From NCBI GenBank assembly GCA_010015585.1, contig ML975186.1: 64,000 nucleotides of DNA. One strand, 5' to 3'. The stretch's first letter is position 1, and the number at the start of each line of letters is the position of its first letter. A program made the translations under genes and the position numbers. Below, one piece after another: positions 38,659 to 55,659 of this stretch. Source of the stretch: Eremomyces bilateralis CBS 781.70 (taxonomy: Eukaryota). The notes under the pieces are model-generated. The model made no database searches. It had not been told where the DNA came from and saw only the letters and a list, made by a program, of their open reading frames with translations.

Positions 38659-40285
38659 TAATAAGAATCAATTTAACGTACTATCTGGATCCCTTTCGGG
38701 TCTATGAGCACAGCATTCGATCTGGTCTGTCGTGGGCAAAAGTTTCCCCGTGGCCCAGAGGCTGCGGGCACATAAAATCCCGCCTCCTCCCCTTAGTAGA
38801 GTATTCCAATCATTTTTTATCTTTCCGCATGAGTCGGTCTTTCCGCCTACGCGGAGAGCTTATTCTGGGACGTCGTGGAGGAGCTGGAACGGTTTCCAGT
38901 CCTCTATTACCTCGTTCTCAACTTCCTTGGTCACCCGGTATTGCTCGAGGCCTCCCGCATCGATCAGCCATCTTGCTGCGTAGCGCACCTTGTCCCTGTC
39001 ATGCAATACCCTCTTAAAGTCCGTTGTTCCAGCTCGTTGGAGGAGCGCGATCCTCTGGTCGGTCCGCTGCGGGCAAAACGCAAGGAGATGGTAGAGAGAC
39101 TGTCGGGGGCCACCGCATTCACACGCTGGGTGGATTCCAGGGACACCAATTTTCGCGAGCCATCCTTCAACTCCGACTACCTCAGTCCGTAGTGCCATAA
39201 GCGCCGAGGCCTCGTGTTTCTGGAGGCCATCGAACCGGATGAGGCATTGGGTTTCCCACGGGTCCTTCTATGTCCTTGCCCTCCTTCCTGGTTTGGCCGC
39301 TTCGGCCTGCCATCTCTCCCTCCATTTCGCCCGATACTCATCCTGGATCATCCGGTACGGGCCTTTTCGCTGTTGTGTCTGATATCCCCTAGCTGGTTCG
39401 GGCCGGGGGAACAGAAGTTTTCATACTGGGTCCGGAGAGTACACATTGCGGGTTCAGGTATAGACCGTATACGTCGGGGTCGGCCTCGCGTTCGTCTCGG
39501 GGAGCGGAGGCAGTATCCCAGACTTGCGTTAGGGCTCCCTCAATCTGGGTAGTGACCTTGTGGGAGTTCATCGATGCTGCTCTTTGAGCGGCCCGTTCTT
39601 GGACATAGAGTTCGATTGGGGGAACGTCCGCCTCTCTCTCAAGCGCGGCGATTGGTGTCCGTTTGTAAGCCCCTAGGATCTTTCGAAGGCACTTATTCTG
39701 AACCTTGGCTAGGTCCTTCATTTTGCCCTCAGAGATTGGCTCACCCTGCTGACGGACTCCCCAGATTGGGGCACCGTATGTCATAATGGGCCGTGCAACC
39801 GCTGTATAGAGCAGCCTCGATTTCCGGACGGATGGTCCCCATACCGATGATGTTACCCTCGCCAGGGAGTCGAAGGCCTTAAGTCCCCTCTGTGTTGCCC
39901 AAGGATGTGGTCCTTCCATGAGAGAGAGGGTTCGAGCCAGACTCCCAATACCCGGAGGGACGTAACTAATTCAGCGTGGTGTCCTTGTATCTGGATCGTA
40001 GAACGGAGATTAGCGGAAAGATTGCGTTTCTTGGTAAAGTGGATAATCTGGTACTTATCCGGGGCAAATTTAGCCCCGAACCGTGACGCCCATTCCAGGC
40101 AAGCATCGTGGGCCGCAGTTAGTCGTTGGCAGTTAGCTACTGCCGTGTCTCCCCAGGTGACAAGTGTAGTATCATCAACGAACCCGAACCCGAGCAAGTT
40201 ACCCTGAACATCTTTGAACTGTTGTAGCAGGTCAGATATGAATAGGGTAATCAGCGCGGGTGATAGGATAGAGCCTTGCGGGATC
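38659..40285 (-). mobile_element. 5'-truncated Tad-like non-LTR retrotransposon (LINE)
   Basis: RT motifs GIPQGSILSP, FVDD, LGVWLEPSLSW, RLLYTAVARPIMTYG; C-terminal CECG..HLLAFC zinc knuckle; short (TTA)n tail; 17-bp TSD CCTCTGCTCAAACATAA at 38642-38658 and 40286-40302. Two frameshifts (~39900, ~39490) and a TAG at ~39269. Confidence 0.95.
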
Positions 40286-41068
40286 CCTCTGCTCAAACAT
40301 AAGTGTCAGAAGGAAAGAATGGGCGGTATCAGTTTATAACCCCCGCTATAGTACTATGTAATAACTACCACAAAACGCTCCCATTTGAAAGAAGTCGACT
40401 GTGACTAACGTGTAGTGAATTCTCGGGTGTCCTTCAGCACTATTTGAAATAGACGCTTGAATAGATGAAGGAATAGTTAGTTGTTTCCAGTTAACTGAGG
40501 CCAACCAAGAGCTAGTAGAATACCTTTTGCTAGGCAGTGACTCATCTTCAGATTGACATTCGAGATCCAAGGTGTCGCGTGGCGCGTATCATTACGTATA
40601 CCAGCAAGGTATCGGACTCGGCCGCGGACTTCCTTAATAATGATGAGTTGCAGTCTTCCAAGGGGTTCAGTTTGGCCCCTCAACCCGCCATGTCTATAAC
40701 TATGTTCACCGTCGATGATCGGGTAACGTGCACTCTCAATCAAACATTGGACGACTCACCACAGCTTCTCCTGTAAAGCATATCACTTGATGAGATACTT
40801 GCGCCAAATAGTAGATCTACAGGTTGGGATTTAGAACCGGACATTGAAGTGAATGGTTCGACCAGTTGATTCCCTGGTTAGAGACGTGTGGAAGTGAATT
40901 CACAGCGAGATGTGAATGCTTTGTCCGAGTCAAAGAACAAATGCCATGTGAATTGTCTTCTCTCTATTAAATCAAAGTGTGATCTATGTTGTGCTGCCTG
41001 CAAGGTTGACAAGACACTCATCACTTCATTCAGACGCGACACTCATACCAGCCTGAACACAACGAGGC

Positions 41069-41662: not shown

Positions 41663-42553
41663 TCAAATGAATTTTAGAATTCTAAGCAGCAGAAATACTA
41701 GCGCTACGGCGACAAATCCGATTGCGCGGTCTATCCAAGCAGACAATACGTCCCGGTCCGGTGTTCGAGGGGTGTGATTCGGTGTTAACGCAGCGGGTGC
41801 GGTCGAATCGATCGATCTTGTTGGACGTGGCGGGGAGTTTGAACTTGACGAAGCCACTGTTGCCACCGGGTCACTCTCCTTCCGCTTCGCCATTCCATCT
41901 TTGTATGCCAGTGCCAGCCCCGGCGGAATGACAGTGTCCGACGTCTCAAGTTTTTCACCTCGCTTCTCCATCGCGCTCACCTCCTCTGCCCACTCCCCCA
42001 TGATTTCCCTATTACATTTCCCGCATGTATCGCATTTCCAGCCCCAACTTTCTTTCGCGAACGTCTCCCGGACCTCGCTGCTGGTCTCAAGCCCGCCAAT
42101 CTGCCCGCGGCTGTCGTCGGCCATGATTGACCGTAGGGCGACTAGCGCCGTCCGCACCCCCCAAGCAGGTAGCCACGTTTCTTCATGATGCCCGGAGATA
42201 CTGAGGCAAATCTCGCGGTTGACCTCGAATCGCCCTGATGGGGTCAGGAAGCGGAAATTGGGGGGTTTGAGCGGATATTGCGGAGGGAGGGAGATGCGGC
42301 CATGGTAGATGCCGGACTCATATGGAGATGATGCCGGGCCTCGTATGGTGAAGTGCCATTCAAAAAGGTTCGAGTCGATGGGATGGGCGGTTAAGGAGGG
42401 ATCCGGCAAGGACGCGAGCTCGGATGCTTCTTTTACTGCTTGGCATGTTAGCGGATTGGTATTCTGGTGGAACATATTTCGGCAAGTCACGGAGAACCTA
42501 CGTAAGCGCCGGATGGTTGGAGTTTTTGAGTTATATGAAGACGTGTTTGCCAT
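41663..42553 (-). CDS. Tail-anchored ubiquitin-conjugating enzyme E2 (Ubc6/UBE2J family)
   Basis: NLFEWHFTIRGP, YESGIYHGRI, YPLKPP, TPSGRFEVNREICLSISGHHEETWLPAW (catalytic Cys), C-terminal TM helix; in-frame 66-nt intron 42501-42436. Confidence 0.92.
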   Translation of the reverse strand: MANTSSYNSKTPTIRRLRRFSVTCRNMFHQNTNPLTCQAVKEASELASLPDPSLTAHPIDSNLFEWHFTIRGPASSPYESGIYHGRISLPPQYPLKPPNFRFLTPSGRFEVNREICLSISGHHEETWLPAWGVRTALVALRSIMADDSRGQIGGLETSSEVRETFAKESWGWKCDTCGKCNREIMGEWAEEVSAMEKRGEKLETSDTVIPPGLALAYKDGMAKRKESDPVATVASSSSNSPPRPTRSIDSTAPAALTPNHTPRTPDRDVLSAWIDRAIGFVAVALVFLLLRILKFI

Positions 42554-42952
42554 TAAAAGTCCGCGACTTGGTGATACGGTAGAAGGGCGAGGCTTGTGGA
42601 ATGGACGTGACGAGTTAGATAAAATTCCAAACCGAGCAACGCTCCAGCGCTAGAAGGTTAAAACGTAATTGGTATAAAAGAGCACCGGTATAGTAGTGTA
42701 TGTATCTAGCATTTGTATCGTGGTATTATCCTGTGGTGATCTGCGCGGGACCGTTGAGCTTGAAGTACTGTACATACTAATTACAACTGATGCGACGTGG
42801 AGCGCGGGGGGTTGGGAGGTTGGGCCGGGAAGGGCAGAGTACATTGTCGATACCGTATTATTTTTAGATCCTGCTGACACTGTTATAGTGGTGCCTTATC
42901 AGGATTATATTACCGTATTAATATCATCTTTTGTCAGCCTATCATATCTATT

Positions 42953-43345: not shown

Positions 43346-46029
43346 ATGGTTACATTCGAAAAGAGTTTCATCGGTGCTGGCGGCAATCGACACCCAGCAG
43401 CATCAGACTGGCACCAAGATTCGGGCTTACTTGCCTTTGGCTCAGGGAGAAATGTCGCCCTATGGTATCCAAAGGTACGACTGGAGGAGTGAACGCTCGA
43501 TTGCCGTAAACAGACCTTTCAACAAGATTGGGTTTTCGATGTTGAATCGATTTGCTAAGCTTAAGACATGCATTCCTCGGTGACGCTGGGACGAAGGGCG
43601 GTCTCATTACTTCCGACCTAGTAGCATGGACAGCTTGGTTTTGTTTGGAATGGATCATGCAGATATATTATTCCCCCGTCGAACTAGAGCTAACAGTTGA
43701 TCCATAGGATGAGAAGGCCCACGGCATCACGCAACTCTTGGTTGGCCATCAAGACGATGTGAATGTCGTTAAATTTTTCCCCGGAAGTTTTGGCAGGCGA
43801 CCAGTCATTATAAGCGGCTCCGTGGATAAGACCATACGGATATGGTGTCCGGAGTCTAAAGAATTTCATGAAAGCCCACATTTCGTGCAAGTGGACAAGA
43901 TCGAGAGCCACAGTGCTTCTGTCAATGCCATATGCTGTCTAAATGGCACCAATCTCGTTGTTTCTGGGTCCTCAGATGGCGAACTCAAAATCTGGAGCCT
44001 GGATATTTCCGAAAAGAATGTGGCTAGCCATAAGTGGAAGGAAAATATCTCACTTTGCAGGCCCAAGTTCATTCCTCTCGCTATTGCCGCAATACGCCTT
44101 AGCCCTAGCATCGACCTTATTGCGGTGGCAGGAACATTCAACAAGGTGTTGATATTCACTAGGCCCAAGGGTCTGGATGGATCGATGGGCATGTTCCGCC
44201 AGGTTGCTTCATTACCAGGTCACGAAGGGTGGATCAGATCACTGGACATTACCCAGGAAACACCGGAAGATGGCTCAGACTTCCTGCTTGCCTCAGCATC
44301 TCAGGATAAATATATCAGGCTTTGGAGGATACATCGAGGCGCAGACCTCCCCGCAGCGGCTGCGACGGACCCATCGTTGGGATCTTTCGGGCTCGCGCTT
44401 TCAAACAAAGCATATCGATTCAATAGCGGTGAAGAGACGCACTCCATCACTTTTGAAGCCCTTCTCGTCGGACACGAAGATTGGATCTACACTGCCCGAT
44501 GGATGAGGTTGAACGCCCACGGATATCGATTGCAGTTGCTCTCCGCCTCGGCAGACAATTCCCTTGCAGTATGGGAAAAGGACGATGTCTCGTTGATCTG
44601 GGTAGTCACATCACGACTGGGCGAAATCAGCGCTCAGAAGGGCTCGACGACTGCCACAGGTAGTACCGGAGGGTTCTGGTCCGGTCTCTGGTTCTATTCC
44701 GGAATCTTGGCGAGTGTCAGCGCGGCGGGGAGCTGGAGAGTGTGGGAATGGGACCCGTCCGTGGGAGATTATCTGCAGCAGATTGGTGTCGGGGGTCACA
44801 CGAAAGAAGTTCGAGGGATATCATGGTCGAAGGACGGCTCCTACCTTCTCTCGACGTCCGCCGATCAAACGACACGACTGTACGCAGAGTGGAAGCGAGA
44901 TGGTAGACGCTCGTGGCACGAGTTTGCGCGCCCTCAAATCCACGGATACGATCTCAATTGCATCGCCTCACTCAACCCTTCTCGGTTCATCTCCGGTGCG
45001 GATGAGAAACTGATGCGAGTTTTCGATGAACCAGCGTCGATTGCAACGCTACTCTCCGGATTATGCGAAATCGCGACGCCTGGTGCCGCTTCTCTGCCGG
45101 AGACGGCCACCATGCCAGTGCTTGGTCTGTCAAACAAGGCGGTGGATGCTGCTGATCCCGACTCCGAGGGAAATACTCAAACTTACAAAAGTGCATTGGA
45201 GGCCCTCACTCACCCGCCACTAGAGGACCAGCTTTCACGGCTAACACTGTTCCCTGAGATCGAGAAGCTCTACGGTCACGGCGCGGAAATCTCCGCGCTC
45301 GCGGCGTCTCAGTCTGGCAATCTGATTGCGTCCGCCTGCCGCGCTTCATCTGAGGAGCACGCGGTGATCCGAATGTATCGAAGCAGTGACTGGAGAGAAG
45401 TGAAGCCGCCGCTGCAGGGTCATAGTCACACTGTCCTTGGCCTCTCGTTTTCCGCTGACGATGAGTTCTTGCTCAGCGTCGGGCGCGACAGGACGTGGAT
45501 TCTGTGGCGGAAAGAGGAAGGGGATGATTACGTGCTATGGGCGAAGAACCCGTCGGCTCACACGAGAATGATCCTGTCATGCGCGTGGGTTCCGCCACGG
45601 TCGACTACAGACTCACGGCGGATTTTCGTGACTGCTGGAAGAGATAAAAAGATCAGAGCATGGGCGATTGAAACGGACGTGAACAAACCCAGTGATGACA
45701 AGACAAATGCGCGCGAGAGGGTGACGCTCTTCGCGACAGTAGATGCCGATGGGCCCATCACAGCCGTATCAGTTGCACCGAGCCCTGTTGATGGATCGTG
45801 GCTCGTCGTGTATGGCAACGAGAATGGGAGACTCAGTGGAGCTCTAATTTCAGTGGACGGATCAGTGTCGCCATGGGATGAGGGACATTCTCCAATTGTC
45901 TCAAGCGGTGAGATTCACGGTTTGGAATGGCGGGTGCCCCTTCAACAGTCGGATGAGAAATTAGGGAACGGAAGGACGTTGGCAGTGGCAGCGGATGACG
46001 GAGTGTTGGTTTATGATATGTGGTTATAA
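43346..46029 (+). CDS. ELP2: Elongator complex subunit 2 (WD40)
   Basis: Exon 1 MVTFEKSFIGAGGNRHPAASDW..; intron 43475-43707; WD40 repeats with LASASQDKYIRLW, FEALLVGHEDWI, WHEFARPQIHGYD, FISGADEKLMRVF, PVLGLSNKAV, LFPEIEKLYGHG. Confidence 0.95.
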
Positions 46030-46546
46030 CGGAGTGCTATCGGTCAGAGAAGGGTTCTGATACGACCTTGGTTAACAAAGGATCTGAAGGAATTCAATGG
46101 CCCCCTTTCGTACCTCCGGGTTCTGGTTTAATTTATGGTACTATACTCCCTTGCTTAGTAGCCGACTTACCTTCGGAAACCATCCATCATGACTCAGTTA
46201 AGTGTGGTTTGGGAATCCAGGAAGCAAGCGGTGACGTTCACAAACTCCATCAAACCAGATTTTCAGAGGGTCCCAACGTGCTTTGTTGATTCTATCTGTG
46301 ATCGCCCTGGTGCGTTAAATTCATCAATCCTGTTTTCATAGCCAAAATCCAAGGTGCCTTTCATATCCCGAATCACGGTGTTCCTTTGATTCCACTGGAA
46401 AAGGGAGTTATATCGCTGACTGATCGAACATACCTGACGCCGACCACCCTTGAACAGCAGGGAGAATGTGGGACCTACCATTACGCCATCGGTCTCCAGA
46501 GTTACTAAAGTGAACCACGTTAACTTCCATAATGACTGGCGTTCTC

Positions 46547-49024
46547 TTATCCCGCTTCGTCGACTAAGCATCCATCCGTCTCGATCAAAAGGTTGCACAA
46601 CGTGTCCTTAGCAATCCGCAACAAATGATATTTATCCATCACAGATGGCATATCCGCCTCTTCCTTGGCCAGGCTACCTGCAACGATAGACTGTGCGGCT
46701 TCTTGATTGGCTGGAATCCAGGCCCATGGAGCAGTCTTACTCGCCGCGCTCACTTCTTCGAATAACGGCCGAACCGTGTTGAGGTACCTCGCTGTAAACC
46801 ATACGTTGGGCGTACATTGGGATAGGAAGTCCACACATGCTTGCGCACTCGACATGTCCGCGTGAAAGCCTTCGGCAGAGCGATGTAGCAGTCGTAGGGT
46901 TGCACAGTGGACGAGAACGGCGCAAGCAACGAATGTTTGATAGCTGTGAGAGATGTTACTGAGGTCACATCGGTTTCCATGGCGTCGAGAGCGCGGTGAT
47001 CAGGCCGGCACTTACACGATGATCCAAAATTGACTTCCCCCAGCAGTACGAGCTTGTTGGAGCAGGACGACCCGCGTCATTTGCTGAGCCGCAGACTCAC
47101 ACTCATCTCGTCCCAGGTATGCCTCGTCGAGGGTGCAGCCTGAGCAGGACCAGTCGCCAGAGCTCTCATATTCGGCAAGAGTATAGAGCAACTGATGATT
47201 GATGCCAATGAGCGTACTGAAATAGAACATGTGCATATTCAAGATCGACCTCCTCTGGATGAGAGAGTACAGTGCTTCGTTTCTATGGTCGAGGGATGCG
47301 AGGTGCACCGAACAAGGCAACTCATTATGCCAGGCAGCCAATCGTTGTTTTCGTGCCCTGAGGGTTGTGCCATAAACATCCGACGAAGAACCAGTAGGTC
47401 CTAGTCCCTCCATTTTCTCCGCGAGAATCAGCCCAATCTTACTAACTTCCTCCTGTAGGATTTGTTCAATGAAACAACTTGACGATGTCCAGTGGCAAGC
47501 GAAGTGTAGATCCGACTCGAGGACATTCGACTTCCGCCCGAGAGCCAGGCCCTGCCAAGTCTCAATGAAGACTGCTGTACGGAAGACGGATCGCCAGTAG
47601 TGTGCTTCGTTGTTCGGGATACTGTTTGGGGTGTTGTGATTGAAGTCTGCTCGGGGGGAAATCTGAAGTCGGCCGATTTGTAAGGCAGTATTTGAGAACT
47701 GTGTGGCGGTGAGGGGGGATTCCATAGTACAGTACAATGAAAGACAGAGGAAGAGCCGCATATGATGCAAATCCGACATGCCCTCACTCTGAGTCAACTG
47801 TTTGAGGCATGAATAGAAAGCCGATTGTCGAAAATGAGCGTCCGTTAGGGAGTAGTCAAAGCAGCTGCCGACAGCAATGATCACAAGCATGTTTATCAGC
47901 AGGAACTTATCCATTGCAGGATTCTTGTAGTCCTGTGCCCAGCTAAGCATGGCGGCAATCTCCTCACGAGCGTATATTGGAAACATGGCTCCAGTGCCAC
48001 CCATGAAAGCTGTAATGACTTGCGATGTCAGGGGTTTCTGGGGAAGATTGACACTATCCAAGTACTCAATACCTTCCGGGGCCATTTCGAGCAATCCCCT
48101 GGCCGCGTCCATTGCGGGAGCAATCGTGAACCTGTAATTCGGATCGAACATATATAACGTCGGTGAAGTCGGTGCGGATATCAAGAACAAGTCGGATCGA
48201 CGTGAAGACTCGTCTCCGGAGCCACTCAGGGGCGACTCTAAGGTGGTATCCAAGATGCCAGGGCCTATTGATTCGGATTCTCCACCACCATCCATGGACG
48301 TATCAAGAGGTTGACGCCCGCCCTTTCTTTGCTCTGTGCTACAGCGCTTTTCCGAGCTTCCTGTCAGGGAGGATTGCTCACTGCAAAAGGCTTTCAGGTA
48401 CTCATGATATCGAGCATATCCCTTCGTTTTCTTGTACTCACCGAGTCGGGCTCGGTATAGAATCATCGCGGCAGCGGCTTTGTCTTCTCGCTCCCCCCTT
48501 CCTTCGCGCCCGAGATCTCGCCACAAGTTTCCAACATACTTTGCCACTTCTACGAATGACAACCCACTGATGTCGTGGGTTGAGCGAATGTGGTCCGAGA
48601 ACTCGACGTAACCAGTTTTCGGCCTGACTGGGGCATTCGGATCTGGTTTAGGGTGGCGACGATATCTCCTTTTGATCGATTTCTGATGGTTAGGACGATC
48701 GGGGTCCACCAGGGGTTTACCCCGCGATTCTAACGATACTCTTCTCTTCGACGAGTCTAGAAGGGCATCGGGCGACGCTGGCTGTGTCTCCGGCACATCT
48801 GGTGGATTGCTGGTGAACTCTCGCTGCAGCTTCCTTCGACGGCTCAACTCCGATTGAAGCCGTTCGAGATCGGTTTCGCCGATTTGAAGTACGGAAGACC
48901 AAGTGTCGAAACCACACTTAGCCAGCACTCCTTCGTATTGAGCAAGATTAGACGAGGCAAGCTTCGCACTCAACTCCGCACACGGTTGGTCCTCCAGGGA
49001 TGGCTCTATGGCAGCTGTGGACAT
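46547..49024 (-). CDS. Putative transcription factor: SAM-like domain + HMG box + fungal TF middle-homology region
   Basis: LAQYEGVLAKCGFDTWSSVLQIGETDLERL..RRKLQ (SAM-like); KRRYRRHPKPDPNAPVRPKTGYVEF..VAKYVGNLWRDL (HMG box); MFPIY..HYWRSVFRTAVFIETWQGLALGRKS (MHR-like). Intron 47015-46944 joins ORF 46547..46855 in frame. Confidence 0.8.
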
Positions 49025-49703
49025 GGTCAGAAAACGGGTAACAGAAGTCGAGGAGGCGAAGGAGGGAAAGGCGAATTATCCAGACGAATTACGTATTAAT
49101 ACTCGGACTGATCTCCTTTTCTCGATTTGGCCAATCAGACCGAAGGGGAGTCCGGAACCAATTCCTGGCCAGTGAGCTTGGGGAACCATCCGGAGATGAT
49201 TCCCCAATTATAGATAGCTGTCCAGGTACAAAATTTGCAAAATAATGCTGCGATGCTGGACAGATAGGGATACAGTTGTCCTACCGTGTGGAAATCCTGG
49301 CACGGTGTGTGCTTGCCCACCTGGTGACGTCACGATGATCCATGGCGGTCTGCATAAAGAACCGAGACGTTACGAATTGCTTAGGCAAGCCAGGTCCAGT
49401 CAGATACGGCTATCGGGACCCTAATGGATGTAATTACGGAAAGCCTGCCGAGGTGGGCACAACCACAGTGCAGACAGTGCGCAGCACCTCCAGACTGGCA
49501 TGCAGTGCTAGGCACGGGGAGGCAGCCACTTGTACGGAGTGTCAGCCAAAATATGACATGGGTATTGATTTTTGAGCAAAAGTCCTGCATCACCCACCCA
49601 CAGTCCACACCCAACTTAACTAGTAAAATACGGTGATTTCACGACGTGAAGCTCTAATTACGTGTATATAGCGATTTCATGATGTTTTACGTGATCTATC
49701 TAC

Positions 49704-50942
49704 CTAATACTTCGTATGCCCACCTTCCACGTCGATCACCGCCTGGATCCTGTGTGGCATAGACTCCACCAGCTTGGTCAAAAGCTCTGGATTCGCGATC
49801 TGATCATACCGTTCGTGCGCCCATTCGACGACCTCCCGTCTCTGGACTCGTGAAGGGCCCGTACGGAGACAGAATTGGCGTGTGAAATCCGCCTTGGCGG
49901 GACTCCAGATATTCTCAGAGTAATTCAGATCCGGCGAAGCAGGCGAATGAGCCACCGTATTGATGCCGTTACGGATCCTCCATTTAGTAGCGAACTTCAT
50001 ATGCCCAGAAGCGTTATCCTCAAGCAAAGCGACCTCCCCATATCGCTCCATCATCTCCACGTAAAAGGGCCAAAGGTGAGGCTCTAGGATCTCCGTAACG
50101 TAGCTCGCGGAGTCCATTTTCACGCCTGGGGGGATCTCAATCAACGGTGTATGGTGCTCGCCGCAGAAGGCGCCCGAAAAGGAGACGCCCTCACGACCAC
50201 TAAAGTGCTCGTCGTGCACGCAATCAGGGTGATACTCCTCTCCAGGGCGACGGAGCACCCGTTCATTTATGACCGCTGGATTAGTATCGATATGGAACTC
50301 GTCGCACGCGATGACACGCTCCCACTCGTTGAATCCCCAATGCCGTTTACCTTGCGCCATCGCGTGCCTGACCTCCTTCGCTCGTGGCGTTAACGCGGGC
50401 TTTTTCTGGGGTCGACAAGATTTGAATCCAAGCTCTTTCGACGCCTGCGCGAACCGCCATTCGGTCCAGCGCCCTGGCGTATCATTTTCCTGGTTCAAAA
50501 GGTCCGCGAGCTGTTCGTAATTCATTCGCTTTGTGTCCCGATTCCTCATAATCAGGGACTCAGCGGAATTGCGCTCCGTTTCGGTGAAATCTGTGGTGGA
50601 GGGCCGCCCAGATCGTTTTCGCTTACACCCTGCGTCTGCTCCGCCGTACTCATAATTAGCACGGATACGGGAGATTGTAGACTGATTGATGCCCAGGGCC
50701 CGTGCAAGATCCCTCTGCGAAATATTGGTTATTTCGGATAAGGTAAGAACCACAGTACGCTGGTAATGCGTAAGATCTCCAGATTGTTCTCCCACTATAT
50801 CCGGAAATTCAGCCCATTTGATAAAGGGGCTGTTCGGGTTGACGTGGAGATGACCAATTGGTTCTTGCGGCATACGCGCAGCCATATTATTCGAGACAAG
50901 CGCTGAGGCGAGTAATTCAATTCGAAAGACTTTTAAATTCAT
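49704..50942 (-). mobile_element. Intact Tc1/IS630-superfamily transposase ORF (DD33E)
   Basis: HTH SQRDLARALGINQSTISRI, RSGRP linker, IACDE (D1), LLEDNASGH (D2), SPDLNYSENIW (E), LVESMPHRIQAVIDVEGGHTKY C-terminus; no stops in 412 codons. Confidence 0.92.
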
Positions 50943-51050
50943 AGAAAACAGTAACTAACTAACTAGTTATCAAGGGTCAGCGCCACGGGTTGTGGCGTGC
51001 CAAGGCGCATGATAACCCAGCCTTTGCGCAACCAACCGCCGAGCCAACCC

Positions 51051-51235
51051 CCACCACCCATTTTAGGCACCACGTACCACCCGTTTTAGGCACTCTTTGC
51101 CGCCTATACGGCCCCCGACCGCTTCTGCCCCGCCACGACGGGCGGCTAACCCAAAATCGGGGATAGGCGGTAACCAAAACGGGTAGTACGGGGTGCCCAA
51201 GGCGGGTGGTTCTGGGTGCCCAAAATGGGTGGTAG
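51051..51235. repeat. GC-rich imperfect inverted repeat (foldback), ~43-bp arms
   Basis: Left arm CCACCACCCATTTTAGGCACCACGTACCACCCGTTTTAGGCAC versus reverse complement of right arm CTACCACCCATTTTGGGCACCCAGAACCACCCGCCTTGGGCAC. Confidence 0.85.
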
Positions 51236-51664
51236 AGTGCCCGCGCCATAGGGAGTCAATCAAAATAAGTCACGTGCTACATGATCATTTCGCAATGGAC
51301 CAATCAGAGTGCAGGATTCGTGACGGGGGGGGCGCTTTGAGCACATCTGGGGGTGGCTTCTTCCAGCATTTCCCTAATTATAAATATAGATTCCAAACCC
51401 TCATATCATACGCTTTTCGTCACACCGTTACATTCATGCATCCAGTCATCCCATTCCATACTCTCCTATGGCAGCTTTTTGAGCCTACCCTTCGTTGGAT
51501 TCGTTACTTCTTCAAATATTCTCTGCTCCCTAACTGCTCCGAACCGCCTCTATAATTCCGCGTAGTGTATAATATACGTCAACTGGGTGTCCTGTTTTGT
51601 CCATCGGACCTTTGATTACAATGGCCTGGTACCTTATCCGTGCGACAAGTATAAGGAAGTGGTT

Positions 51665-53826
51665 TCAAAGAATCGTTAATGCGTTCCATCTCGAGATGAG
51701 ATTCCCTAGCTGACCAGACAACTCATTGTTATTATTCGGACCGCCGGCCAAGCGCCCCCGTACCTCCTGGAACTGCGGCAAGAACAAGCTGAGTGGCACA
51801 TCTTTTACTGTTTCGCCTGGTGCATCAAGATTCTGGAAATATGGTCTTGAAGAGTCCGGGACGTTCTGCTTTAGCGTCCATACCAACGCGTAGATGCCTC
51901 GGAGCATGGTCCCGATGACAGGGAAGGTCGGCAGATTGACAGACAGCATATTACATGCCTGAGTGAATGGCCCGTGGGTTCTTTCGTCATTGAGCCAAGG
52001 TGTGAGATGGAGAGCGGCGTTGTACGGGGCAGAGAAGAAAGCGCAAGCATAGTGCTCCGGCGACCAGATTTTGATACATTTTTCGGCGCCTTCAATGCTA
52101 GAGATGGCATGTATGATGCACAGGTCTTTAATGGTCGAGCCTCCATCAAGGTCTTCGAACCAGGTATTGGAGGGCAATGGTCGTAATATGGACACTGCAA
52201 CTTCGTTGATTTGGGAGCTAATTGGTGTCAGTCTGAAATCCTCGAAACCTCGTCGACTCATGAAACTTACTGCAAGGCCACAGTGTGTGGCGTAACATGC
52301 TCTGTGATTTTGTACATTTTTGGGATGGTGCCCTTCCATTCCATCAGCTTCCTGTACAATTCATTCCGTTTGGAAATATCCTCGTCACTCCCCGAGTCGT
52401 AGTCCCTTGTTTCGTTAAATTTCATGATCTTGAACTGAGATGCGCAGAGATCGTAGGCGGAATCGGCGATTCCTGGTGTTTGTGGAGGCTGTGGCGACTC
52501 TTTTCCGAACTTGTGCCCGAATAGGTCAATGTGGTCTCCAGCTTCGAGACTGCTAGTCTCGAATTTGGATAGTGGTGGTCGTGGAATACCGGGGGGTGGA
52601 AGAATTGGGGGTTGTAAGAATCCATATGAGATCATACTGCCAAAGCATTAATAGTGCACTTCCGGAAGAGAGTTGAGGTAGATACGTACGTGTCAAGAAG
52701 ATGAAGTCCCCACAAGGCTTTTGAGATGATTCTCCGTCCAACCATCTCGGCCTCGGTGTCACCGAGTGATCGGAACCGCTCTTCAAGCTTGAGCCGTTTG
52801 AGCATGTCGAATGCCATGTACCTGTATACTGACCCGAGTCGATCTCTCCCCGTGTACATTGCATACACCAAAAGGACAGCGAGCCCCAGGACGGTAGATA
52901 GACACTCACTTCCATCTTCCATGTCTAGCAGCTTCTTTGCCTCGTCAAAGAATGCCTCTCGGGTATCTTTTCCGGTGATACATTCCGCGAGTTTCGAATG
53001 TGGAGAGGAGAACTGTGAAGGCGAGTGAGTAAAGCAGTTCAAAGCATATGCCAGGAGACATACACTTCTCTCTGCGCATATGGCATTGACTAGCAATGGT
53101 GAGCAGACAATTGCGTTCTGGGGATCGCCTTCTCGCATCTCCTTCAAAAAGGTTTCCTTATCGACGAAAGAGTAAAGCAAGTTGTGATCCCAGCAGAAAA
53201 AGTCGGATATCAAACTGGATACGAGACCATCCTCGGTCACCATCGTCCAAGGGTGAGCCGGCACTTTCAGGTGGCTACTTCGCAACGCGTCGCGCTCCAC
53301 AGTCTCCAACCGCTGCGTTTGTTCATTCGTTTCTGCGCCAACAGAATTTGGCAGCAGGTAATTCGCCTGCTTCACCATATGGAGGACCTTGATCGCATCC
53401 GGGGTGGTCCTGATGCGTTTGAGGATGTCGGATGCATCTCGTTCCGTCTGTTCGCGGAGAGTACGGTAGAGCTCTTGGAACTGTTCCACTTCCAGTTCCA
53501 GCTTGCCATACTTCCGCTTCAGCGAGGAGTAACGACTTGACTCGCCTACTTCAACATCGTAGTGGCATGATATACCGGTCTCAACGCAGCTAGTGCAAGA
53601 TGGCCGATCTCCACTACACTGCGCCTGTTAGCACACTTGCATCGACTCCGAACCAGAGCCAGTCATGGATACTTGCCTTTGCCTTTTTCTGCTGGCAAGT
53701 GCGGCAGGCAACTTTCACAATGCTCCGCCGACGGTTCGATTGTCGGCTCGAATTGGCGGGAGAGGTAGATGTCGCTGTCGGAGTTGCTCCCGTAGCGGGA
53801 GCCAGAGGCCTGAATTGCCGGTCCAT
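51665..53826 (-). CDS. Zn(II)2Cys6 transcription factor with fungal MHR domain
   Basis: MDRQFRPLAP..ACRTCQQKKAK|CSGDRPSCTSCVETGISC after removing a GC-AG intron (53676-53619); then VPAHPWT, CSPLLVNAICA, SKALWG in ORFs 52632..53489, 52267..52635 and 51665..52339, joined by further introns. Confidence 0.9.
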
Positions 53827-55659
53827 GTTCAGTCCAAACCCCCTGTCAACAAGATTCCGGGACACTGCACATGGGCCTGAATTCGGTTTGGTGCCGGTTG
53901 TCGCGATAGGGAGTCCGGGATGAAACGGGAACCGAAATAGGAAGCTGTTAGATGTAGGATATGATAGATCCGTAGAGGCTGATCGTCGACAAATCAGATT
54001 GGATGAGTCGATGGATCAGGAAACAGAAGGTGAACGGAATACGATGCCTCGTCTGGGGAGGAGTATTCATATTATGGTGATCTCGGTAACGTCATGTTGA
54101 TGGAAAACGCGGACCTATGTCCGGGTCTCTCGTCTTCTGTAGTACTGGCCGGTAGGTGTCGGTCATAGGAGGATGGGACGACTGGATGAGTCGACCAGTG
54201 TCCCTCAACAGTCGATCCTGATGGCAAGCTTCAGTCTATCCACTGACGCCTCAGCCGGACTTTTCTCCGACATGGCTCCTGGGTTCTCGATAGCGTCAAC
54301 TTGACGCACGGCTAATGTATGTATCATCGCTGTGGCGTCCGACCGGGTCTGGCTCCGTCACCAGTCATTTTTTGTATATATTTCATCAAGGATGTTCGCC
54401 TCCCTGGCTCTTCTAAGTTCTAAGTAACCCTTATGTCCACGTTCACGTCTTTGTTCAAATTCGATTATCAATCACCGCTGTTTCGTGCCAATGACTTTGC
54501 CGAAAGTCCATCAGAAGTCCAGAACATCCATATATTGGTCCCATGACGACACGACTTCGGCACTTCAGTGTCATGGCGGATTTGTTGATAAGTTCGATTT
54601 TGTTGAGAGAGAGATGAAGTCGCCACCTGGTAGGTATCAGGTTGCGGTAAATCATTCGAAATAGATATGCCAATTGCCAATTTGTGTGTAATCTGATAGC
54701 ACTAAATGCATTCCAACTCCGCTGTCGATTCCCAGCACCAATCAAACCATTGGTCCATTGCAATATTGTCGCAATACTGTAGAGCACGGAGTATGGTACG
54801 CGATTGCTTAACATCCAAAACACTTCATCTACCGTGATCTGGCACACACTGCAAGATCAGATGATGTATGCAAAAAGGTGGGTCACCAATCAGACATTGC
54901 GCTGCTCACAATTGCGGCTAGTATGGTATGCACTAATTAGACCAAAGTTAATGCAGTAACACAGCCTGTGGCTCTATCTATTGGCCACAGATATACCACG
55001 CTTAACCAATATCGGTATAACCTATTTCATCTTCCATACCTTTTCCCTCAAGCTCGGATCTCGCGGTAGCTTATTTAAACTCCATCAGCCACTGCCATAA
55101 CAATTTCAGTGACTCTTTCGTACTCCCTGCTGGGAGCTCAAGAGCCTTAACTCGCTTCAAAATATCGTCTTTGTCTTCGTTCACTATGAGCAGCTACTTC
55201 TCAAGCGCAGTCATGTCTTCACATTATCGCGGTATCCAGCTCCCAAAGGTCCTGTTCGTACCTCCCAAACCTTCTTCGCGAGGGTTGCAGGAATATTATG
55301 CCCAACATTGGTATCCGTAACCTGGATCTATCTCATGGGATCATACGCGCTGGCAACAGCAGTTTCTCGAATAGTTGGGCAAGTTTCCAGCGCCTGTTGT
55401 CTAGCCTAGGACTCGCATACATCCATAGAAGAATTGAGAATGAATAGGTAGCTAAGTCGATAACACCATAATTTGGATGCTACTGATTCGGAGGGGAGCT
55501 ATTGGTTTCTCCCATATATCATACGTTGAATATGGTACTGCATGTCCATCCCGCAGTCACTAGACAGGGATACATCATATTATTCCCACTTTGACGATAG
55601 AGCCATCTGACTGCCAGTCTTTATAAGTGCGTAGCGACTACTCGATGTGGTACCCCTGC

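Follow-up and report, generated by a model that had tools for sequence, protein, structure and literature searches.

A conserved, apparently undescribed family of SAM-HMG proteins with a middle homology domain and no zinc cluster, seen from a gene of Eremomyces bilateralis

Does a gene of Eremomyces bilateralis encode a genuine middle homology domain (MHD, or MHR) protein in which a SAM domain and an HMG box stand in place of a zinc cluster, and if so, where did its parts come from and how might they work together? According to the passages of PMC10141177 (Mayer et al. 2023) on which we draw throughout, the MHD comes with a zinc finger and exceptions are annotation errors: it pairs with Zn2C6 (~90%) or C2H2 (~6%) domains, and MHD-only entries are mostly errors. 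The original prediction, made within the 64,000-nt stretch of Eremomyces DNA analysed here (the window), was of a domain-shuffled regulator with a SAM-like segment, an HMG box and an MHR in one uninterrupted exon.

The gene lies on the minus strand, with its ATG at 49024 and its stop ending at 46547. Read unspliced, 49024-46547 runs into stops at codons 671 and 675 (the open frame runs to 47012), and removal of a 72-nt phase-2 GT..AG intron (47015-46944) yields 801 aa, identical to database protein P0003, which is listed under Eremomyces bilateralis CBS 781.70.

45974..49245, minus strand: spliced 3200-nt contig of run X1, covering the whole gene
47016..49024, minus strand: exon 1, encoding aa 1-669 and the first two bases of codon 670; it holds the SAM domain, the basic tail, the HMG box and linker, and the greater part of the MHD
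46944..47015, minus strand: intron, 72 nt, phase 2, GT..AG, skipped in the X1 contig
46547..46943, minus strand: exon 2, aa 670-801 plus stop (end of the MHD, last helix aa 771-797)

The claim of a single uninterrupted exon holds for the SAM domain, the HMG box and the PF04082-equivalent part, all of which lie in the open exon 1 (aa 1-669, 49024-47016), but the range 46547..49024 given for it is broken by the intron, and exon 2 completes the MHD fold (aa 670-740). Exon 1 matches the X1 contig without differences, as does the whole of the contig's cover (45974-46943 and 47016-49245), which skips exactly the 72-nt intron; the joint shows one spliced molecule carrying all three domains. X1, the sole public run found, comes from one study, was taken as RNA by guess and is kept as contigs that give neither strand, level nor true transcript ends. 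Its contig has its 5' end at 49245 without a further splice joint, and at its 3' end overlaps the end of a convergent WD40 gene (window 43708-46029, plus strand), which we take to resemble Elp2. No Zn2Cys6 pattern, whether six-cysteine or half, and no C2H2 pattern occurs in the three minus-strand frames of 46500-51600, which span the gene and 2.5 kb upstream; with no extra exon in the X1 contig, the predicted absence of both motifs stands.

The protein is laid out as a SAM domain (aa 16-72), a basic tail with an HMGB-type HMG box (114-225) and a Gal4/Cep3-type MHD (298-740).

48809..48979, minus strand: SAM domain, aa 16-72, five helices, divergent
48632..48685, minus strand: basic tail before the HMG box, aa 114-131 (nine K/R against one D/E in aa 114-136)
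48350..48631, minus strand: HMG box (HMGB/UBF type) in aa 132-198, followed by one more helix that reaches aa 225
46733..48133, minus strand: MHD/MHR, Cep3-like and all-helical, aa 298-740, spanning the intron

Pfam finds the HMG box below threshold only (E 0.03-0.04; 15 bits against a cut-off of 25.4) and returns neither SAM nor PF04082 on this protein. Profiles built from 75 relatives with the query excluded score 52 bits for SAM, 112 for HMG and 311 for MHD (best of 200 shuffles below 4 bits), and profiles from 73 unfused SAM-HMG proteins score 48.5 bits for SAM (shuffles at most 3) and 99 bits for HMG. The AlphaFold model (mean pLDDT 75.6), made with a family alignment of 23 sequences, an input that can pull a decayed domain toward the family fold, has ordered blocks at ~16-72, 121-225 and 298-797 joined by loose linkers. 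Foldseek ranks Cep3/CBF3 chains first at modest E values (4e-3 to 0.1), with SAM and HMG chains matching the front. By VIA, Cep3 takes ranks 1-10 (Z 15.6-17.8 over ~400 residues; best 2veq, Z 17.8, rmsd 5.3, 400 aligned, 11% identity), ahead of unrelated helical repeats at Z 13.8; SAM domains reach Z 9.1-9.8 over aa 11-87 (EphA4 SAM, Z 9.8, rmsd 3.5, 67 aligned; BICC1 SAM, Z 9.3, rmsd 2.0, 61 aligned) and TFAM Z 8.9 over aa 126-227. In the Atlas, aa 300-750 match PF04082 clusters (features 0.97, TM 0.74-0.79), and a 74-member Ascomycota cluster of ~770 aa carries SAM and HMG. The SAM-like segment and HMG box of the original prediction are thus borne out by query-free profiles, unfused-protein profiles and fold alike, though Pfam misses the SAM domain, and its C-terminal MHR proves a true MHD, given the ten top Cep3 ranks and a profile match at probability 99.9 to a Zn2Cys6 protein of the same genome (L003).

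The architecture extends far beyond this genome. Word-index searches for homologues were insensitive (4 matches with the query, 5 with alignment A2), and the family was assembled from a full HMMER scan (1065 matches, of which 150 listed) together with a search using the MHD of P0010. SAM, HMG and MHD all score in 100 of 223 fetched proteins, a count that includes cluster mates and was made with profiles built from 23 of these proteins, and the full Zn2Cys6 pattern occurs in none of the 100 fused proteins. The P0010 search returned 64 proteins; besides the query, 58 align over 88-100% of the domain with 52-69% identity, and those with names belong to Pleosporales. Twenty more distant proteins were looked up; 16 could be named directly and one via a cluster mate, giving Aulographum, Pseudovirgaria, Saccharata, Aplosporella, Phyllosticta, Diplodia, Tothia, Lineolata, Trichodelitschia, Patellaria, Coniosporium, Microthyrium and Delitschia, which we assign to about ten Dothideomycete orders in all. 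Rather than a rarity of the Eremomyces genome, the protein is a member of a family spread across Dothideomycetes.

Members go by the name 'HMG box domain-containing protein' because Pfam misses their MHD (PF04082 is listed in 0 of the 64 rows of the P0010 set), and the current labels of Pleosporales members are 'HMG box protein' or 'NHP6B' only. The nearest relative of the Eremomyces protein, P0004 (40% identity over 92%), is alone among the proteins scanned in having SAM_1, HMG_box and Fungal_trans all above cut-off. Within the subsets scanned, which cover only part of the 76-row family alignment, PF04082 is above cut-off in P0004 (28 bits) and P0014 (29.2) and below it in P0009, P0010, P0013, P0028, P0106 and P0204. 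An aromatic C-terminal tail closes 58 of the 76 aligned rows.

A widespread family might already have been described, and the literature, surveyed at the level of titles and abstracts and leaving subscription journals and the InterPro architecture list outside its scope, yielded no description of a SAM-HMG-MHD layout and no mention of six locus tags of Pleosporales members; the original remark that no characterised example is known agrees with this. The term 'HMG' is absent from the main text of two surveys of fungal transcription factors (term search; PMC5415576, PMC3998117). The consulted text of PMC10141177 names only Zn2C6, C2H2 and MHD-only layouts and cites 1905 InterPro architectures, which it leaves unlisted; at least one row of its supplementary spreadsheet carries the term 'HMG', for a Chaetomium entry to which a corrected zinc cluster is assigned. 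From the profiles, trees and folds we conclude that the SAM-HMG-MHD family is a real, conserved and apparently undescribed variant of MHD regulators with a different DNA-binding end, all of whose parts are known.

Two parents can be traced. The front resembles Pezizomycotina SAM-HMG proteins of the type of PaHMG2 (Pa_1_7390) and NCU02819, which, in the portion of PMC3730723 used here, have the same order of SAM domain, basic tail and HMGB-UBF box; PaHMG2 is placed there in the HMGB-UBF class, with a SAM domain, and its deletion from Podospora does no more than slow growth to 90% and cause pigmentation of the mycelium. These unfused proteins end in a low-complexity tail (median 19% hydrophobic residues), whereas the Eremomyces family ends in an MHD. 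The Eremomyces genome also carries an ordinary unfused SAM-HMG gene, L002. In a FastTree of 149 SAM-HMG rows, from which most Pleosporales rows and cluster mates had been dropped beforehand, a branch with 98% support splits 42 of 44 fused from 73 of 74 unfused proteins, and in an unrooted IQ-TREE of 50 chosen rows, 21 Dothideomycete fused and 21 unfused proteins separate at 100/100 with L002 on the unfused side. The Eremomyces protein thus has the N-terminal SAM domain and HMGB-UBF box of PaHMG2-type proteins but falls on the other side of this split. On the evidence of these trees, the fused front is a paralogue of the PaHMG2/NCU02819-type gene, whose orthologue in this genome is L002; the unfused set is equated with PaHMG2 via the domain table in that portion of PMC3730723, not by sequence.

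L002 has four introns in its SAM-HMG region, and none of these is present in any of eight fused genes; a single frame runs from SAM domain to basic tail at 26 of 28 loci, of which two are probably cDNA. An intron in the HMG box of Pleosporales genes was considered as a remnant of an L002 intron and ruled out, the positions lying six codons apart. Judged by these intron positions, the chances that the front was retroposed, and so intron-less, appear about evenly balanced, because a single unfused gene was mapped and the family loses introns easily.

The other parent is a Zn2Cys6 gene. Two such genes in the Eremomyces genome, L003 and L008, carry a related MHD; L003 matches P0010 at E 2e-26 and the family by hhalign at 99.9 over 451 columns. 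Spliced alignment of 7 of the 28 metagenome loci plus the window places four of the family's intron positions in the MHD and a fifth in the HMG box. L008 shares two of the MHD positions, at the same codon and phase (residues 439 and 656 of P0204, present in 4/7 and 5/7 loci), and has an additional intron absent from the family; the residue-656 intron is the sole one kept in the Eremomyces gene (47015-46944). The introns common to L008 and the family indicate that the MHD half came at the DNA level from a Zn2Cys6 gene, and, together with the paralogous front, that a SAM-HMG module took the zinc cluster's place. The "domain-shuffled" character proposed at the outset is thereby given its sources, an L002-type front and a Zn2Cys6-type MHD. 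Compared with CeGAL or Gal4-like Zn2Cys6-MHD factors (PF00172 + PF04082) as treated in the consulted passages of PMC10141177, the Eremomyces protein has the same all-helical, Cep3-like fold and descent in its MHD and shares the last helix; it differs in lacking an upstream Zn2Cys6 domain and a PF04082 match above cut-off, and its family has a SAM domain and an HMGB-type box, with neither Zn2Cys6 nor C2H2, where those factors have a Zn2Cys6 DNA-binding end.

Related fronts also occur with other partners. P0042, P0074 and P0144 (and likely P0119) have SAM, HMG and Zn2Cys6 in one frame, with Pfam Zn_clus above cut-off in P0042 and P0074 and a Zn2Cys6 pattern in P0144, and form their own branch (100/99). 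These fragments were considered as the direct ancestor and are not supported as such, since the branch lies outside the Dothideomycete fused group and the frames end before any MHD. Outside Dothideomycetes, P0106 (Pycnora), P0145/P0274 (Umbilicaria) and P0138 (Xylogone) join SAM-HMG to a distant MHD lineage (branch 2.35, 100/100), which represents either an independent fusion or an older shared origin. P0134 and P0276 carry a family-type front and an unrelated, ordered C-terminal domain without a Pfam match; the P0134 tail presumably resembles DUF3425, an identity that we set aside for want of a Pfam match or a relative in the Eremomyces genome. P0077 has SAM and MHD, its HMG box being gone.

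No conserved neighbourhood emerged: none of the window's neighbour genes was matched at any of the 28 relative loci, many of which are on short contigs. The upstream palindrome singled out in the original prediction is present but is no feature of the family.

49325..49332, no strand: TGACGTCA palindrome resembling a CRE; the 5' end of the RNA cover lies 80 nt away

It occurs twice in the window against 0.94 expected and was rejected as a conserved site, being found at 0 of 22 related loci (those of the 28 for which 406-1000 nt of upstream DNA could be used; most are subfamily A, and some are near-duplicates). A Tc1/mariner-type transposon (window 49535-50954) ends ~510 nt upstream of the ATG; its minus-strand ORF (49704-50954) is an open 416-aa HTH + DDE frame, a 94% identical copy lies on contig C32, X1 gives it no RNA cover, and a search for terminal inverted repeats found none. 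Short imperfect inverted and direct repeats at 51040-51300, with 68-81% identical copies on several other contigs, are probably MITE-like. Just past the transposon lies an ordinary multi-exon Zn2Cys6 + PF04082 gene (51665-54015, minus strand), which is not among the relatives recovered for the MHD of the SAM-HMG-MHD protein. On the minus strand on the other side lie a reverse-transcriptase fragment (RVT_1, 39853-40305) and a gene for a ubiquitin-conjugating enzyme with a C-terminal hydrophobic anchor (41663-42649).

How might such a protein work? With a little better than even confidence, we lean toward a chimaeric nuclear regulator, a SAM-HMG front on the MHD of a Zn2Cys6 gene, that acts as a co-regulator tethered to chromatin and active only under certain conditions, not as a classical site-specific factor. 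The domains, the family, the two parents and the shared introns show that it was made once, when a duplicate of a PaHMG2/NCU02819-type front joined the MHD-coding part of a Zn2Cys6 gene and the zinc cluster was lost. The basic tail and box would bind and bend DNA as HMGB-type boxes do, with little regard for sequence, the tail (aa 114-131) being, from its composition, a likely DNA contact and nuclear signal. Contacts between SAM domains, either of two copies of the protein or of one copy and the unfused SAM-HMG paralogue, would add avidity or guide it to its targets. Its MHD would behave like that of a Gal4-family protein and control a short, aromatic activation tail at the C terminus, perhaps in response to a metabolite or partner. 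That last step, like the possible ligand response of the original prediction, is drawn from analogy, the MHD being postulated as inhibitory and effector-sensing in the consulted text of PMC10141177, where ligand sensing is a postulate even for Gal4-type proteins. A prediction of an MHD homodimer (two copies of aa 298-797, alignment not used) scored 0.01, which speaks neither for nor against a dimer. SAM contact and activation are the weakest steps of this mechanism in the Eremomyces copy itself.

In an MHD tree of 31 rows, 26 Dothideomycete-type rows fall on one side (90/93) and contain a ten-row group, subfamily B (100/99), with the Eremomyces copy, P0004 and second copies from Aulographum, Pseudovirgaria and Delitschia; the first copies of these three group with Pleosporales (subfamily A). 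Subfamily B, the faster-evolving of the two, forms a single branch in the MHD tree, but the short SAM-HMG tree does not bring its members together. The Eremomyces copy lacks the aromatic C-terminal tail, as do all eight B rows checked, three of them fragments. Conserved columns have decayed in the HMG box of P0008 (22/35 kept), P0024 (14/37) and P0077 (6/23) and in the SAM domain of P0009 (9/23), a pattern suggesting that the front may be dispensable in subfamily B. The Eremomyces copy keeps 17 of 25 such columns in SAM, 28 of 32 in tail and HMG and 33 of 41 in the MHD. Its SAM domain carries F58S, K59E, G61S and H62R at the start of helix 5 (48839-48853), and in its HMG box, which keeps T137, Y139, V140, F142, F157 and W168, the core aromatic of helix 3, which corresponds to a Tyr in HMGB1 box B, is replaced (W179R; 48488-48490). 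The residues replaced at these five sites are kept by 67-71 of 75 relatives (G61, H62 and W179 by 70-71), and the X1 contig confirms the letters at the changed residues. In polymerising SAM domains, the surface at the start of helix 5 takes part in head-to-tail self-association, and SAM oligomerisation by the Eremomyces copy is doubtful because four residues there, kept by 67-71 of the 75 relatives, have been replaced.

These observations bear on a further reading, which we hold to be rather unlikely: that the Eremomyces copy is largely without DNA binding and SAM polymerisation and serves as an MHD-centred partner of Zn2Cys6 factors, either as their co-factor or as a decoy, or else that relaxed selection is letting it drift. 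The substitutions at near-invariant columns (G61S, H62R, W179R) and the loss or decay of HMG in three relatives speak for it, as do long end branches (0.56-0.61 in SAM-HMG against 0.13-0.16 for the sister P0004; 1.26 in MHD against 0.2) and a relative-rate excess that appears with all four outgroups in the MHD (chi-square 7.6-18.3) and with two of the four in SAM. The intact 801-aa frame and its spliced RNA contig argue the other way, as do the well-kept tail and HMG columns, which show no significant rate excess (chi-square 0.2-3.3), and the standing of this copy as the sole family member found in the Eremomyces genome. On the co-regulator reading that we prefer, these substitutions and the missing tail probably leave the Eremomyces copy weaker than subfamily A in both oligomerisation and activation, with the MHD as its main means of action.

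It is improbable, in our estimate, that the protein is a true sequence-specific factor whose HMG box, helped by the tail or the MHD, reads a defined motif in the zinc cluster's stead. Such a factor would fit the near-invariance of the basic tail and the first helix of the HMG box in 16 Pleosporales proteins, and in the consulted passages of PMC10141177 the MHD is proposed to aid target discrimination. The class of the box points elsewhere: all 29 solved-structure matches of aa 127-198 (HMGB1, E 6e-7) are of HMGB, SSRP1, TOX, Nhp6A, HMG-D or BAF57/HMG20 type, and no SOX, TCF or MATA box is among them. HMGB1 box B, Nhp6A and HMG20/BAF57-type boxes are the best solved matches by sequence, and Nhp6A and TOX match by fold as well; those HMGB1, Nhp6A and HMG20/BAF57 proteins have no SAM domain or MHD, and the Eremomyces box differs from theirs in the Arg at the helix-3 core aromatic position. 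In the HMGB1 box B alignment, T137 takes the Ser position and V140 and F157 those of the two hydrophobic wedge residues, and the three are kept in 67, 69 and 72 of 75 relatives, respectively. Ser with a hydrophobic second wedge residue marks non-specific boxes, and sequence-specific boxes have Asn at position 10 of helix 1 and a polar residue at the start of helix 2; Thr137 and Phe157 at the two diagnostic positions depart from the latter.

That the protein is a Cep3-like structural component of chromosomes, with the MHD as scaffold and HMG and SAM bending and bridging DNA, and no regulator of transcription, seems very improbable. Cep3 of the yeast CBF3 complex is its best structural match, with the MHD fold in common, and HMGB boxes are architectural; but Cep3 was the sole solved MHD as of PMC10141177, in the part consulted, so that any MHD would match it, the identity is 11%, and the sequence relatives of this MHD are ordinary Zn2Cys6 proteins. 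Cep3 itself has a Zn2Cys6 domain and a centromeric role (PMC10141177, same part), whereas the Eremomyces protein has no zinc motif. We give virtually no credence to a gene-model artefact, despite the more than 90% of apparently zinc-free MHD entries that are annotation errors by the consulted text of PMC10141177, as a merger of two genes or a missed upstream zinc-cluster exon is ruled out by the placing of SAM, HMG and MHD in one exon, by the same domain layout in 100 of 223 proteins, by the zinc-free sequence up to 51600 and by an RNA contig that starts at 49245 without a further joint.

More tentatively, and as a proposal that we consider possible but more likely wrong than right, the family may be a third, zinc-free class of MHD regulators overlooked in Dothideomycetes: a signal-switched architectural factor in which a Gal4-type sensor and activation module sits on a non-specific bender targeted by SAM-SAM contacts with the unfused paralogue. 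The SAM-HMG front may then be mobile, possibly a retroposed cassette that captured several effector ends; those considered were the family MHD, the Pycnora/Umbilicaria/Xylogone MHD, Zn2Cys6 (P0042, P0074, P0144) and another domain (P0134).

Against the view that an MHD comes with a zinc finger, the SAM-HMG-MHD family stands as a conserved exception, with RNA support and a DNA-binding domain of a different class. As a domain swap made by nature, it lets one ask how the MHD functions once the zinc cluster is gone, a question left open in the consulted text of PMC10141177, and it adds an apparently unrecognised regulator family to Pleosporales and related orders.
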